A DNA stretch of 64,000 bases from Candidatus Aminicenantes bacterium UBA1061 (GCA_002316315.1 DCDG01000022.1:66731-130730); one strand, 5' to 3'. Counted from the first letter of the stretch, positions 1 to 7,965 are shown. A program made the numbers and translations. Notes: generated by a model not told the origin, from the sequence alone.

Positions 1-456
1 TTCAGACAATACGCCCGCAGCTTCTGGATGGAAATGGAACCAGATTTCAGTTGCCAGCCCTGTCTGGACAGGATCTGGAGCAATATTGAAGTCGTCTCAT
101 ATATCGAAAGAATGAGAAAGCTGCAAGTTGAAGCTCTATCCAGCGTTTTTGATCCGGCTGCTTATGACTCGCCACTGGAAGTGGAAAAAGTGCGGATAGA
201 AATCCGCTCACCCTATCTCAGCGCTCAGAGACGGAGCGGGCTGGTGACCGGAATAGACTTCAATAAGAGTAAGCTTAAAGATCAGGTGACAGTTTACCTG
301 CCAACCGCCAGCGGAGAACAATTCAATTTTGAATATAAGATCAAGGCTGTCTTAAAAACCGGACAGATTGCTGAATCACCCGGCTGGGAAACAGTGACCG
401 ATAGCCTAGACCTGACCATTGGTCCCTATCAGATCAAAAATCTTTTCAACAATTAG
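1..456 (+). CDS. Hypothetical protein, C-terminal fragment. The reading frame is open to the window start, so the protein is 5'-truncated. It lies 50 bp upstream of the paralog array on the same strand.
   Basis: ORF 28..456 has no in-frame stop back to position 1. I recognise no motif. Being same-strand and close to the next gene suggests co-transcription. Confidence 0.4.
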   Translation, partial: FRQYARSFWMEMEPDFSCQPCLDRIWSNIEVVSYIERMRKLQVEALSSVFDPAAYDSPLEVEKVRIEIRSPYLSAQRRSGLVTGIDFNKSKLKDQVTVYLPTASGEQFNFEYKIKAVLKTGQIAESPGWETVTDSLDLTIGPYQIKNLFNN

Positions 457-506
457 AGGGGAGACCGAAATTAACCGGTTGATTTCATAAGAATAAGGAG
501 GAAGAC

Positions 507-2192
507 ATGTGTGGCTCTGGAAAGAAAAGGGTGAGAGTTTTTTTTGTGTTTTTTGCCCTCACTTTTTTATTGATAGCCGCTGGACTGCAGGCTGAAGTGC
601 TGCTCGACAGGGAACCGGTTCAGGTCTCCAGGACTCTGCTTTTCCGGGATCATGCTGATGAACATGGTTATCACTATATGCCTCTGGTCCCAAAAATTGC
701 TACCTGGTCTGACGGCAAACCGAAGTTCAGTTTCATTCAGTATGTCAGAACAGGGAAGGAAATCACCGGTGGGATTCTCCATTTTCTCTGCACCTTCGGT
801 TTGAATCAGACAGAGCTTAAAGAAGCAGAACAGGAACTTACCCGAATAGATAAGGATGGAAAGATTATCGGCCCGGTCATGTTTGTCTCGGGCCAGTTTT
901 ATATCATCTCGGCCTCAGCCGGGGAAGGTGGAATATTCAGCCGGAGAGTGGTAGGCACAGGCAAAGCTCCACTCCTGGCCGGTTCGGAAGCGGCCGTTTC
1001 TATTGCTCTGACCGAAGAAGGCTCAACCCTTTTGATGGAATCTTTCAAGAAACCAACTTCCGATGTTTCTGTTCAGTTTCTTATGACCTACCAGGGGCTA
1101 ACCCCGGCTTACCAGGCGCTCCTGACCGTTGATTGGGATAAAGTCTATAACCATAAAGAATTCAAAGCTAAGGTGGGAAATTTTCTGGTAAGTGCCCAGA
1201 TTCAGAAGATATACGATGAATTAAGAGAACAAGGTGCCATCAAGCTGGAAGTTATTGGCGAAGACACTAAAATGGATGAACTTCTTGATACGGCTTATAA
1301 CACCATTACCAAGATGATGTTTGAAGCTAAACCGGTTAAACCTGAGGAGATGGGCCAGGCTCAGGCCTCAACCAGTTCCAGCCGGCTGGGTAACCTGTCC
1401 GGGGCAGCTCACTTTGGCTATTTCCAGAAGGAGATAAAATTGAGCGGCAAATATACTGTTGACCTGACCAGACGGAAACGGGACCAGCGTGAAGTTCCAC
1501 TGACCGGAAATATTGGCGGAGTCTATCAGCAATATGGTCAGAATTCAGAGTTTTTCTCAGTGGTTGACCTGGATGACCCGACTTTTGAAGAACGAACAAT
1601 TAATGTCATTTTAGATGGAGAAGATCTACAAACTTTTCAGCAATTTCTAAATTTTGCCGGCATAACTTTTAAAAAAGAATATGAAAGTGGAGAGATGAAA
1701 CCTGTAACTGAGGACCTGATTTTTGACCGCACCAAGTTCGGGCAAAACGGAAACAAGCTGTCACTCAAATACCGGCGGAAGGGCGACCAGACTGAAAAAT
1801 GGTTGGAATATGAATACAAGCCAATCTGGAGCTATGCGGGTGGCCTGGAAGTGGCCGGGGAGTGGATCAAGACCAGCCAGCCTGTTATTACCCTCACCCC
1901 GCCCCACAAATACAGATATATTGAAGTCCTGGCTGAAGAAGAAAATATGAACAGAAATGGGATCATCAGAATTGCTGTTCAATTCCGCCATAAAAATTTC
2001 GGCCGGCAGCTGCAAAAAGAAGTTGTGCTGCGTAAAGGGGAGCCTCTCAATACTAACTATGTTTATTTCCACGAGCCGAATAATCTTGAGTATGAATACA
2101 ACATAACCTGGCTTTTTAAGGACAATACCAGAGTTTCCTCTGGCTGGATGAAGGCTACCGATCCATTTATTTATGCCTATTATGAAAAGTAA
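507..2192 (+). CDS. Secreted protein, paralog 1 of a 4-member tandem family of unknown function (signal peptide, conserved ~200-aa N-domain, conserved ~240-aa C-domain).
   Basis: RBS AAGGAGG 6 nt before ATG 507. N-terminal hydrophobic signal sequence FFVFFALTFLLIAAGLQA. Long blocks are shared with ORFs 3406..6228 and 6265..7965: RDHAD..YYY.P, GGILHF, GKAPLL.GSEAAVSIALTEEG, KLSGKY.VD..RR, SVV.LDDP.F.ER, LTPP. Confidence 0.8.
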   Translation: MCGSGKKRVRVFFVFFALTFLLIAAGLQAEVLLDREPVQVSRTLLFRDHADEHGYHYMPLVPKIATWSDGKPKFSFIQYVRTGKEITGGILHFLCTFGLNQTELKEAEQELTRIDKDGKIIGPVMFVSGQFYIISASAGEGGIFSRRVVGTGKAPLLAGSEAAVSIALTEEGSTLLMESFKKPTSDVSVQFLMTYQGLTPAYQALLTVDWDKVYNHKEFKAKVGNFLVSAQIQKIYDELREQGAIKLEVIGEDTKMDELLDTAYNTITKMMFEAKPVKPEEMGQAQASTSSSRLGNLSGAAHFGYFQKEIKLSGKYTVDLTRRKRDQREVPLTGNIGGVYQQYGQNSEFFSVVDLDDPTFEERTINVILDGEDLQTFQQFLNFAGITFKKEYESGEMKPVTEDLIFDRTKFGQNGNKLSLKYRRKGDQTEKWLEYEYKPIWSYAGGLEVAGEWIKTSQPVITLTPPHKYRYIEVLAEEENMNRNGIIRIAVQFRHKNFGRQLQKEVVLRKGEPLNTNYVYFHEPNNLEYEYNITWLFKDNTRVSSGWMKATDPFIYAYYEK

Positions 2193-6228: not shown

Positions 6229-6264
6229 AAATTATCATATATAAAGAAAAGATAGGAGGCAAAG

Positions 6265-7965
6265 ATGCAGCAGAAAAAACTGATGGGTATCCTGCTGGCT
6301 GCTTTCTGGCTGGTTGGTTTGGTGCCCTATGCGGCAGCGGAAGTTGAACTTGATTCGGTTCCGCTTCAGGTGGCCAATGCCATCCTTTTTAAGGACCATG
6401 CCGACCCCAATGTTTATTATTACATGCCAAATCAACCCCGGCTGGCTTATTGGCCCGACGGAACACCAAAACTAACTTTTCTCAAATATACCAAAGCCGG
6501 AAAAGAAGAATCAAAGGGCGGTATTCTGCACTTTTTTGTTAAATACGGTCTGGATGAACAGGAATTGAACAAAGTCAGGCAGGGATTGAAGGAGATAAAT
6601 CCTGAGGCCACTATCAAGGGCCCACTGGTTTTCAAAAAAGGCTCTTTTATGGTCATTTCGGCGGCAGTCGGAGAGGGTGGGGCTTTTACCAGGAAGATTA
6701 TTGGCGAAGGCAAAGCCCCCTTGATTTCAGGTTCGGAGGTTTCGGTGTCCATCGCTGTTACTCCTGAAGGAGCTACGTTTCTGGAAGAAGCTTTACGGCA
6801 GCCCACTTATCCGGTGAGCGTCAGGTTTGAGATGACCTATGAAGGCCTCACCCCTAAGTACCAGGCCACCGCCACCATTCACTGGTCTAAGGTCCGGGAG
6901 TATTTTGACCAGTACAGTAAATGGAAGATTTACAAAAAAAAGAAACTGGGAATCTGGACCTGGTATGTTAAAACCGGAACAGGAGAATATCGTGAGATTA
7001 AAGATGAATTGACCTCTAAGGGTGCGGTCAGGATTGACATTACTGGAGAAGACCAGAACCTGGACGGCCTGATGCAGAGCCTGGTCGACACGATCATGCG
7101 CGAAATGTTCGACACCAAGCTAGATTTGCCAGAAGAAGATGAAGGAGAAAAAGGGGAAGAAGGAAAGGAACAAGACCGGCCCTATGGCGTCAGCACTACC
7201 AGAAAAAAGGTCAACCGAACAGATGACTGGTCAATCAACATGACCAAGCGCTTGCGGCAGGAGCGTGATACCGGACCGATGGATGCCAGTATCGGCGATA
7301 TAATGAGAAAGTTCAAGAACAATAAAAAGGTTTTTGACATTATCAATCTGGATGACCCTGACCTTCAGGATAGGGTTGTTTATGCCATACTGGACAGTGA
7401 AGATTTTGAGACTTTCAAGAAATATATAAATTTTGTGACTGTCAGTTTCAAGAAGACACATAAAACTGGAGAGCCTACCACCCGTGATGTGATCTTCAAT
7501 GCCCAGACTTTTGCCGAACAGGGCAATATGCTGTCTTTCGTCTACCCACGACTGGGAGAAGGAACCACCTGGTTAGGCTATGAGTATAAGACCACCTGGA
7601 GTTTTAAGGGCGGCATCAAAGTGGATAGCCCGTGGAGCAGGAGCGAGGAAGCAGCTATAAATCTCTTTCCGCCTCACCGCTACCGGGAAATAGACGTCAT
7701 TGCCGATGAAGAGAATGTTCGAGCCTACAACATTAAGTTAATAACTGTCACCTTCAAGAACAAATTTGCTGACCGGGATAAGACCGGCGAAGTCAAGCTG
7801 CTGCCCGGAGAAACACTCCTGGCCAAATATGAATATATCCATCCAGAAAATGATATGAATTACCAGTATCAGGTAACCTGGCTGCTCGGAGACGGGAGGA
7901 GGGTGTCCTCCGGCTGGCAAGGGACAACTGAACCATTTGTTTATGCTCTTTATCAGGAGAGGTGA
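6265..7965 (+). CDS. Secreted protein, paralog 4 of the family, with a short Glu/Lys-rich acidic insertion.
   Basis: RBS AGGAGG before ATG 6265. Signal peptide LLAAFWLVGLVPYAAA. Conserved blocks as in paralogs 1 and 3. Insertion EEDEGEKGEEGKEQD. Confidence 0.8.
   Translation: MQQKKLMGILLAAFWLVGLVPYAAAEVELDSVPLQVANAILFKDHADPNVYYYMPNQPRLAYWPDGTPKLTFLKYTKAGKEESKGGILHFFVKYGLDEQELNKVRQGLKEINPEATIKGPLVFKKGSFMVISAAVGEGGAFTRKIIGEGKAPLISGSEVSVSIAVTPEGATFLEEALRQPTYPVSVRFEMTYEGLTPKYQATATIHWSKVREYFDQYSKWKIYKKKKLGIWTWYVKTGTGEYREIKDELTSKGAVRIDITGEDQNLDGLMQSLVDTIMREMFDTKLDLPEEDEGEKGEEGKEQDRPYGVSTTRKKVNRTDDWSINMTKRLRQERDTGPMDASIGDIMRKFKNNKKVFDIINLDDPDLQDRVVYAILDSEDFETFKKYINFVTVSFKKTHKTGEPTTRDVIFNAQTFAEQGNMLSFVYPRLGEGTTWLGYEYKTTWSFKGGIKVDSPWSRSEEAAINLFPPHRYREIDVIADEENVRAYNIKLITVTFKNKFADRDKTGEVKLLPGETLLAKYEYIHPENDMNYQYQVTWLLGDGRRVSSGWQGTTEPFVYALYQER

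Follow-up and report, generated by a model that had tools for sequence, protein, structure and literature searches.

A conserved operon of exported paralogous proteins of an unrecognized family in Candidatus Aminicenantes, and its possible role as a multi-subunit complex

A 64,000-nucleotide stretch of Candidatus Aminicenantes bacterium UBA1061 DNA (GCA_002316315.1 DCDG01000022.1:66731-130730), referred to here as the window, opens with five adjacent and similarly oriented open reading frames (ORFs), termed g0 to g4, that encode exported proteins of an unrecognized family. The host is an uncultured member of the Aminicenantes, assigned to the class Aminicenantia of the Acidobacteriota and close to Candidatus Saccharicenans, with the window being 97-98% identical to the Acidobacteriota metagenome-assembled genome (MAG) JAQURD010000003. 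Positions are counted from the first nucleotide of the window, except where preceded by the identifier of another locus (e.g., L001), and genes lie on the plus strand unless stated otherwise.

An initial annotation, made from the sequence alone, had described four consecutive same-strand ORFs beginning at positions 507, 2218, 3406 and 6265, each encoding a protein with a signal peptide, and both points were borne out. The first of these ORFs, g1 (507-2192), encodes the canonical long form of the family, namely a 561-residue protein comprising a signal peptide (residues 1-29; nucleotides 507-593), an N module (residues 30-275; nucleotides 594-1331), a disordered linker (residues 276-309) and a C module (residues 310-561; nucleotides 1434-2189). 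The TTG-initiated g2 (2218-3243) encodes a short form of 341 residues that contains a signal peptide, the core of the N module (residues 25-199) and the last beta-sandwich of the C module (residues 234-324). The 940-residue product of g3 (3406-6228) is a long form comprising a signal peptide and N module (residues 1-285; nucleotides 3406-4260), a hypervariable cassette inserted at the junction of the two modules (residues 286-685; nucleotides 4261-5460) and a C module (residues 686-940; nucleotides 5461-6225). Finally, g4 (6265-7965) encodes a long form of 566 residues, in which an N module bearing a small insertion rich in lysine follows the signal peptide and is joined to the C module by an acidic linker. 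Upstream of g1, positions 1-456 hold the 3' end (151 codons) of the gene for the leading component, g0, assigned to a family termed F1.

The intergenic gaps separating g0 to g4 span 50, 25, 162 and 36 bp, in that order, and a GGAGG-type Shine-Dalgarno sequence is found at -11 to -7 in all four of g1-g4 (GGAGG at -10 in the case of g1). For g3, a GTG codon at position 3331 would yield a longer ORF; because the ATG at position 3406 is served by a GGAGG Shine-Dalgarno sequence and gives a protein with a signal peptide, the latter was considered to be the start. Such tight spacing, together with the Shine-Dalgarno sites and a gene order kept in some 35 Aminicenantes loci, indicates that g0-g4 form one five-gene operon. 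Scans for promoters and terminators yielded counts at chance level (14 vs. 9.0±2.8 and 12 vs. 9.8±3.1, respectively) and, as such, were uninformative.

Examination of g1-g4 and of a full-length g0 orthologue revealed a positively charged n-region, a hydrophobic core of at least 12 residues and an AxA-like cleavage site in each case. When a lipobox or a further hydrophobic segment was sought in all five proteins, none was found. As such, the five proteins are predicted to be substrates of the Sec pathway and signal peptidase I (SPase-I), rather than lipoproteins or membrane proteins.

BLASTP comparison showed that g1, g3 and g4 share an N module of ~245 residues and a C module of ~250 residues at 36-48% identity (E 1e-54 to 3e-152), in agreement with the two-module architecture proposed earlier. 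Specifically, g1 and g3 are 48% identical across the N module (E 1e-86) and 43% identical across the C module (E 5e-74), g3 and g4 share 40% and 36% identity across the same modules, respectively, and g1 and g4 share 39% identity over their full length (E 3e-152). The conserved motifs listed in the initial annotation are present in all three proteins, with the correction that three residues, rather than two, separate DHAD from YYY in the first of these. At the DNA level, similarity among g1, g3 and g4 is nearly absent, such that the copies are taken to be old duplications and not an assembly artefact, as had been argued. The g2 protein is much more distant, with BLAST revealing 27-36% identity over ~90 residues. 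Alignment of g2 with profiles of each module using hhalign revealed that the core of the N module is retained (98.7%, E 2e-16), while all but the final sandwich of the C module is missing (90.7%, E 1.3e-6 for the part retained), as expected from the earlier statement that this copy has lost most of its C-domain. Two further descriptions also held, these being a large insertion in the third copy, comprising tetratricopeptide repeats (TPR) and a stretch rich in A, T, G and Q, and an acidic stretch in the fourth, seen here as the linker.

Where the earlier account requires revision is in the size of the array, given as four genes. The ORF at positions 1-456 presents no in-frame stop back to base 1 and hence corresponds to a gene cut by the start of the window, as already recognized when the upstream ORF was described as 5'-truncated. 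A full-length orthologue is found at L001:7749-9950, in a relative showing 95% DNA identity, and encodes a 733-residue protein comprising a signal peptide, an NPCBM-like head (residues 30-201) and a conserved body of ~460 residues that opens with the family hallmark FKDNEKPNTYYYLP. Because the g0 orthologue carries this hallmark and matches the g2 profile (94%, E 1.3e-7), the array is considered to include five genes. In nearly every Aminicenantes locus, moreover, g0 immediately precedes g1. As for the head of g0, 13 of 19 orthologues match NPCBM/NEW2 (PF08305) over the same region, all with values below the gathering score (best E 0.0096). Across all phyla, F1 proteins retain a C-terminal region of ~430 residues through which they are linked to the g0 orthologues, with the head being the part that varies. 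In Flavobacteriaceae, the F1 head carries three to six ricin-type beta-trefoil lectin (ricin-B) repeats (2e-59 and 1.5e-24), while the g0-type head domain is found as a separate protein in other phyla. A profile search for F1 heads across phyla returned no new domains, the results being swamped by Aminicenantes orthologues.

The distribution of the family was considered at several levels. A word-indexed search retrieved 90 relatives, essentially all in Aminicenantes/Acidobacteriota MAGs, while an exhaustive profile search retrieved 2,340 clusters at 50% identity, including 648 at E 1e-30 or better. Distant members (28-34% identity) were found in Bacteroidota, among them cultured Aquimarina, Dawidia, Parachryseolinea, Flavivirga and Muriicola, and in Gemmatimonadota, Verrucomicrobiota, Kiritimatiellae, Planctomycetota, Desulfobacterota, Spirochaetota and one Gallionellaceae MAG. 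No relatives were found in viral contigs. When each species was represented by a single genome, 75 loci were retrieved, and a hidden Markov model (HMM) scan of all loci revealed same-strand arrays nearly everywhere, with arrays of four to seven paralogues being seen in Bacteroidota, Planctomycetota, Verrucomicrobiota, Desulfobacterota, Spirochaetota, Gemmatimonadota, Acidobacteriota and one Gallionellaceae MAG. Four family genes were found in 40 loci, five in 12 and six or seven in eight, with lower numbers being seen mostly at contig ends, while, of the 80 loci at which the family was matched, 44 include short forms that match the N-module profile, mostly comprising the N module only. The initial annotation had raised the question of whether homologous arrays exist in related MAGs and whether copy number varies between strains. 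Such arrays do exist in related MAGs, while gene number and the g0-g1-g2-g3-g4 order are the same in the ~35 Aminicenantes loci, the exceptions being one extra tandem g3 and some extra short forms.

Clustering of all co-directional ORFs revealed a shared grammar, in which a leading F1 gene (i.e., g0) is accompanied by several members containing N and C modules, including one short form, and optionally by F3 (243 residues), by one to three copies of F2 (~475 residues) and by arrays of exported TPR proteins termed F4 (~450 residues). The possibility that F2 proteins are outer-membrane barrels was rejected, as these lack the C-terminal aromatic signature. Outside the Aminicenantes, the long forms correspond to four orthologous subfamilies, typically with one of each per locus and in an order kept across phyla. 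Because the same four subtypes appear in constant order in different phyla, they would appear to be fixed, non-redundant subunits of one assembly. Within the window, g1, g3 and g4 cluster together, nearest the subfamily found at position 4, such that the Aminicenantes version would be derived, having arisen in part by lineage-specific duplication.

Pairwise dN/dS values (i.e., the ratio of non-synonymous to synonymous substitution rates) relative to orthologous operons lie between 0.03 and 0.44 where dS is informative, with a single higher value (0.76) coming from a near-identical pair for which dS is 0.016. The most conserved subunit is g4 (0.03-0.25). These values indicate that the family overall, and every subunit within it, is under purifying selection. 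The initial annotation had proposed a diversifying surface or effector gene family. Of this proposal, only strain-to-strain variation of the g3 cassette could be retained, given the low dN/dS values, the constant gene order and number and the existence of four orthologous subtypes; a diversifying gene family as such was rejected on the basis of dN/dS and conserved synteny. Comparison of window positions 507-7965 with L001:10001-17383 further revealed that dS is uneven along the operon, being ~0.10 for g1 and g2, 0.48 for g4 and ~0.2 for the flanks of g3, indicating a recombination mosaic between close strains that extends beyond swapping of the cassette.

The same evidence bears on the view, also that of the initial annotation, that the array arose by repeated duplication and encodes independent and partly redundant exported paralogues, each serving alone as an adhesin or effector. 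Lineage-specific clustering of g1, g3 and g4 is what would be expected in such a case, as is a copy number that is not absolutely fixed, with one genome containing an extra tandem g3 and some containing an extra short form. By contrast, gene order and number are conserved in Aminicenantes with purifying selection acting at each position, four orthologous subtypes occur in conserved order across phyla, and the head-bearing, short, cassette-bearing and plain architectures are each conserved. Taken together, these findings render this view very doubtful.

Several observations concern genes within or beside the operon at other loci. F3, found at L045:11740-12474 and at 15 other loci, almost all of which are from Bacteroidota, is an exported accessory protein of 243 residues encoded inside the operon, and is absent from the operon of the window. 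F3 proteins present the invariant residues GKTGHxGI, FNC(T/S)DF and STPN, with two of 12 members weakly matching Peptidase_C97/PPPDE (E 0.015). F3 proteins may be permuted papain-type peptidases or amidases, with the subunits of the operon as their substrates. At L043:57-4457, in an Acidobacteriota MAG from soil, a gene immediately upstream of the operon encodes an InhA-like M6 metallopeptidase of 1,466 residues that contains galactose-binding-like, PKD and CBM60 domains. In Flavobacteriaceae, the operon is flanked by genes for an extracytoplasmic function (ECF)-type sigma factor and for a putative anti-sigma factor containing TPR (L056:18606-19915, L078:2973-4299 and L059:1714-3011), while in Aquimarina, it is preceded by genes for a histidine kinase of the Reg_prop type and a response regulator of the LytTR type. 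The presence of such flanking regulators in Flavobacteriaceae and Aquimarina suggests inducible expression of the operon.

Searches of Pfam, NCBIfam, PADLOC and PHROG revealed no match, to E 0.01, on the modules of any of g0-g4. Likewise, no consistent weak family emerged when 69 diverse members were scanned one by one against Pfam, and no match was found when all PDB chains were addressed in sequence and three-profile searches. All relatives are labelled hypothetical in every source, and no description of the system was found in the literature. The description of the family as unrecognized, offered earlier because the motifs could be matched to no named domain, is therefore upheld on both modules. 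Within the sources searched, the family would thus have neither name nor known function, and the system appears to fit no known kind. AlphaFold modelling gave confident results, with a predicted local distance difference test (pLDDT) value of 78 for whole g1 and, when an alignment of 69 sequences was used to model the N module by itself, a pLDDT of 86 and a predicted template modelling score of 0.72. In these models, the N module is an alpha/beta structure with no known fold neighbour, and the C module comprises two immunoglobulin (Ig)-like beta-sandwiches.

The structural models speak to an earlier speculation, namely that the stretch VSIALT-EEG-STLL recalls the beta-hairpin of beta-pore-forming toxins. 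In both AlphaFold models, this stretch instead forms a strand followed by a helix, and neither an amphipathic membrane-spanning beta-hairpin nor the bent central sheet with two helical clusters of transmembrane hairpins (D1-D3) typical of MACPF/cholesterol-dependent cytolysin (CDC) proteins was seen. The g1 model includes a single long hairpin (residues 126-153), in which RR is present and the tip is variable and of low confidence. As such, a pore-forming toxin was rejected as the primary explanation, given the lack of both an amphipathic hairpin and fold support. In its broader form, such an explanation would hold that the operon encodes a multi-component pore-forming or binary-type toxin, in which the lectin-headed leader targets a host or prey glycan, a pore or prepore is formed by oligomerization of the long-form N modules, the Ig-like C modules contact a membrane or receptor, and the TPR proteins serve as chaperones. 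In line with this idea, toxins often bear heads of the ricin-B lectin type, the matches to the C module include pneumolysin D4 and a CDC of Gram-negative origin, the distribution of the family is patchy and accessory-like, with cultured carriers being host-associated marine Flavobacteriaceae, and the operon is in places adjoined by a sigma/anti-sigma pair or a two-component system and in one case by an InhA-like protease. At the same time, no toxin family in Pfam is matched, no route across the outer membrane of the producer is apparent and the family is absent from viral contigs. Considered alongside the unsuitable character of the residue 126-153 hairpin, these points make a toxin rather improbable.

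The g3 cassette comprises a TPR-like helical region (residues 286-545) and a low-complexity spacer rich in A, T, G and Q (residues 546-685). In the window copy, matches to TPR_14 and TPR_2 in Pfam are sub-threshold (E ~0.01), with many orthologues carrying precomputed TPR hits in the same database. When g3 was compared with its counterpart in L001, the N and C modules were found to be 94-95% identical, as opposed to 30-36% identity across the cassette, with window positions 4218-5430 having no detectable DNA match in L001. Among 26 g3 orthologues, pairs with flanks that are at least 90% identical present a median cassette identity of 46% and a minimum of 31%. In one Ca. Saccharicenans genome, two tandem g3-type copies (L016:12706-18401) share 98% identity across their flanks (N module, 100%; C module, 96%) and 47% identity across the cassette, such that one cell could hold two cassette specificities. 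Cassette dN/dS values are 0.17-0.45, i.e., up to some 10-fold those of the flanks and below 1, while cassette dS is saturated (2-2.6) where that of the flanks is ~0.2. Such values point to the cassettes being ancient alleles moved by recombination between strains, rather than products of recent positive selection.

Profile comparison using hhalign revealed homology between the cassette and the stand-alone F4 TPR proteins (99%, E 2e-18, 155 columns), relative to values of 71% and E 4e-5 over 69 columns obtained with a control TPR protein. Because this homology corresponds to a Rosetta-stone fusion, the TPR proteins would be functionally tied to the family defined by the N and C modules. The two arrangements nonetheless differ in that the TPR unit of Aminicenantes has become part of a long-form subunit by fusion and is allelic, whereas at L004:12148-20323 and L048:15796-19888, the unit is represented by arrays of three to six separate, tandem exported paralogues found directly downstream of the operon. 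These paralogues, of ~450 residues and sharing 33-57% mutual identity, are stand-alone counterparts of the g3 cassette. Moreover, for many of the 150 best-matching family members, the match falls into two separate stretches, corresponding to the N and C modules, indicative of inserted sequence at the junction and suggesting this site to be a general insertion point.

The explanation tentatively preferred, at a likelihood somewhat short of probable, is that g0-g4 are non-redundant subunits of a single exported hetero-oligomeric complex with variable binding modules. Such a complex would sit in the envelope, at the surface, or else be released, with its core being built of the conserved N and C modules and with the junction of the two facing outward and accepting insertions. 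Binding specificity would reside in two subunits, namely g0, with its carbohydrate-binding-like head, and g3, with its TPR cassette carried on a long flexible spacer. The most likely role of the complex would be the recognition or capture of an external and variable ligand, as in adhesion, substrate capture or targeting. The operon of the window may, with similar reserve, be seen as the Aminicenantes version of an unrecognized multi-subunit exported machine of diderms, in which a leader with a glycan-binding head is joined by one short and three to four long subunits and by TPR partners that vary, and which is built on a fold having no solved relative.

A number of points weigh against this explanation. 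Physical association of the subunits, like the location of the complex and its binding of a ligand, is inferred. The NPCBM signal lies beneath the Pfam threshold in every protein. With dN/dS of the cassette being less than 1, positive selection lacks support. The partial origin of the Aminicenantes array in lineage-specific duplication could also mean redundancy. Finally, no outer-membrane component, type IX secretion system (T9SS) C-terminal domain, lipobox or energy source is encoded. Given that neither an outer-membrane component nor a secretion signal is found, the default location, at least in Bacteroidota, would be the periplasm. There is, therefore, a conflict as to location, in that nothing encoded explains passage across the outer membrane, yet the lectin heads and the allelic hypervariability suggest an outside location.

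A further possibility is that the proteins form a periplasmic envelope scaffold, i.e., a complex of structural or chaperone-like character that includes TPR and ankyrin partners, in which the A/T/G/Q-rich spacer of g3 would allow one module to span the periplasm, as in regulators of the LpoA/LpoB type. The SPase-I signal peptides would be in keeping with such a scaffold, as would the absence of a lipobox, a beta-barrel signature or, in Bacteroidota members, a T9SS C-terminal domain, the abundance of exported TPR proteins in or beside the operon, the Sec-exported ankyrin and TPR protein encoded next to the operon in the window, and the near-restriction of the family to diderm phyla. On the other hand, periplasmic housekeeping proteins would not usually bear lectin-type heads (ricin-B and NPCBM-like) or a cassette as hypervariable between alleles as that of g3, the patchy distribution speaks against a core envelope function, and the ankyrin-containing neighbour is kept only in the closest relatives. 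A periplasmic scaffold is thus considered unlikely.

When the preferred exported complex is compared with known systems, flagellin and pilus subunits offer an architectural analogy only, in that the conserved N and C modules of g3 flank a variable centre composed of recombining, diverged alleles. The similarity extends to neither sequence nor fold. Moreover, g0-g4 bear Sec signal peptides, and the variable part of g3 is a TPR array with a low-complexity spacer. Other systems considered nearest are the chaperone-usher Fim/Pap pili and the Bacteroidota type V Fim/Mfa pili, with their paralogous subunits and lectin-tipped adhesin, the B components of PA-type binary toxins (anthrax PA, iota Ib and Vip1) and multi-component beta-pore-forming toxins. 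Type V pilins (FimA/Mfa) differ from all five proteins considered here, which lack the lipobox cysteine of a lipoprotein signal peptide.

An operon that is conserved in many diderm phyla, that includes five to nine genes with exported products only and that corresponds to thousands of clusters, and for which there is no family model, solved relative or functional annotation, represents a gap in our understanding of bacterial envelope and secretion biology. Were a surface assembly or a toxin indeed encoded, this would correspond to a new class of either multi-component toxin or surface complex (fibre-like or adhesive), with TPR cassettes conferring a specificity that differs between strains. 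The 'hypothetical proteins' that recur as a block in Aminicenantes, which have no cultured representative among the genomes recovered, would also be accounted for. Experimental handles are offered by cultured carriers, namely Aquimarina, Flavivirga, Tenacibaculum, Muriicola and Lacinutrix, by the lectin-headed subunit, the ligand of which could be screened for, and by the natural set of cassettes, which should mark the specificity determinant.

Downstream of g4, an ORF at positions 8149-8592 matches the C-terminal half of the AbiEii toxin (profile positions 128-269 of 270; PADLOC, 1.4e-54; Pfam, 3e-15). This confirms the abortive-infection toxin remnant reported earlier as lying immediately downstream of the array, now identified as an AbiEii fragment unrelated to the operon. 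The ORF presents no Shine-Dalgarno sequence, stops are found upstream in all three frames and no full-length nucleotidyltransferase domain is encoded, such that it is predicted to be a pseudogene fragment. In the closest genome, L007, the alignment runs through this stretch, while in L001 and L003, a gene on the opposite strand encoding an adenine glycosylase is found instead. The remnant was accordingly rejected as part of the system, not being syntenic in L001, despite the 95% DNA identity of that relative, or in L003.

The neighbouring gene at positions 8674-10458 encodes a Sec-exported protein of 594 residues in which ankyrin repeats precede many TPR repeats. Because this gene adjoins the operon only in the window, L001, L003 and L007, i.e., the closest relatives, the encoded protein was rejected as a core component, with any functional link to the operon being putative. 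Beyond this, an ORF on the minus strand (10484-12943) encodes a protein of 819 residues, the translation of which includes the DKTGT phosphorylation motif of P-type ATPases.

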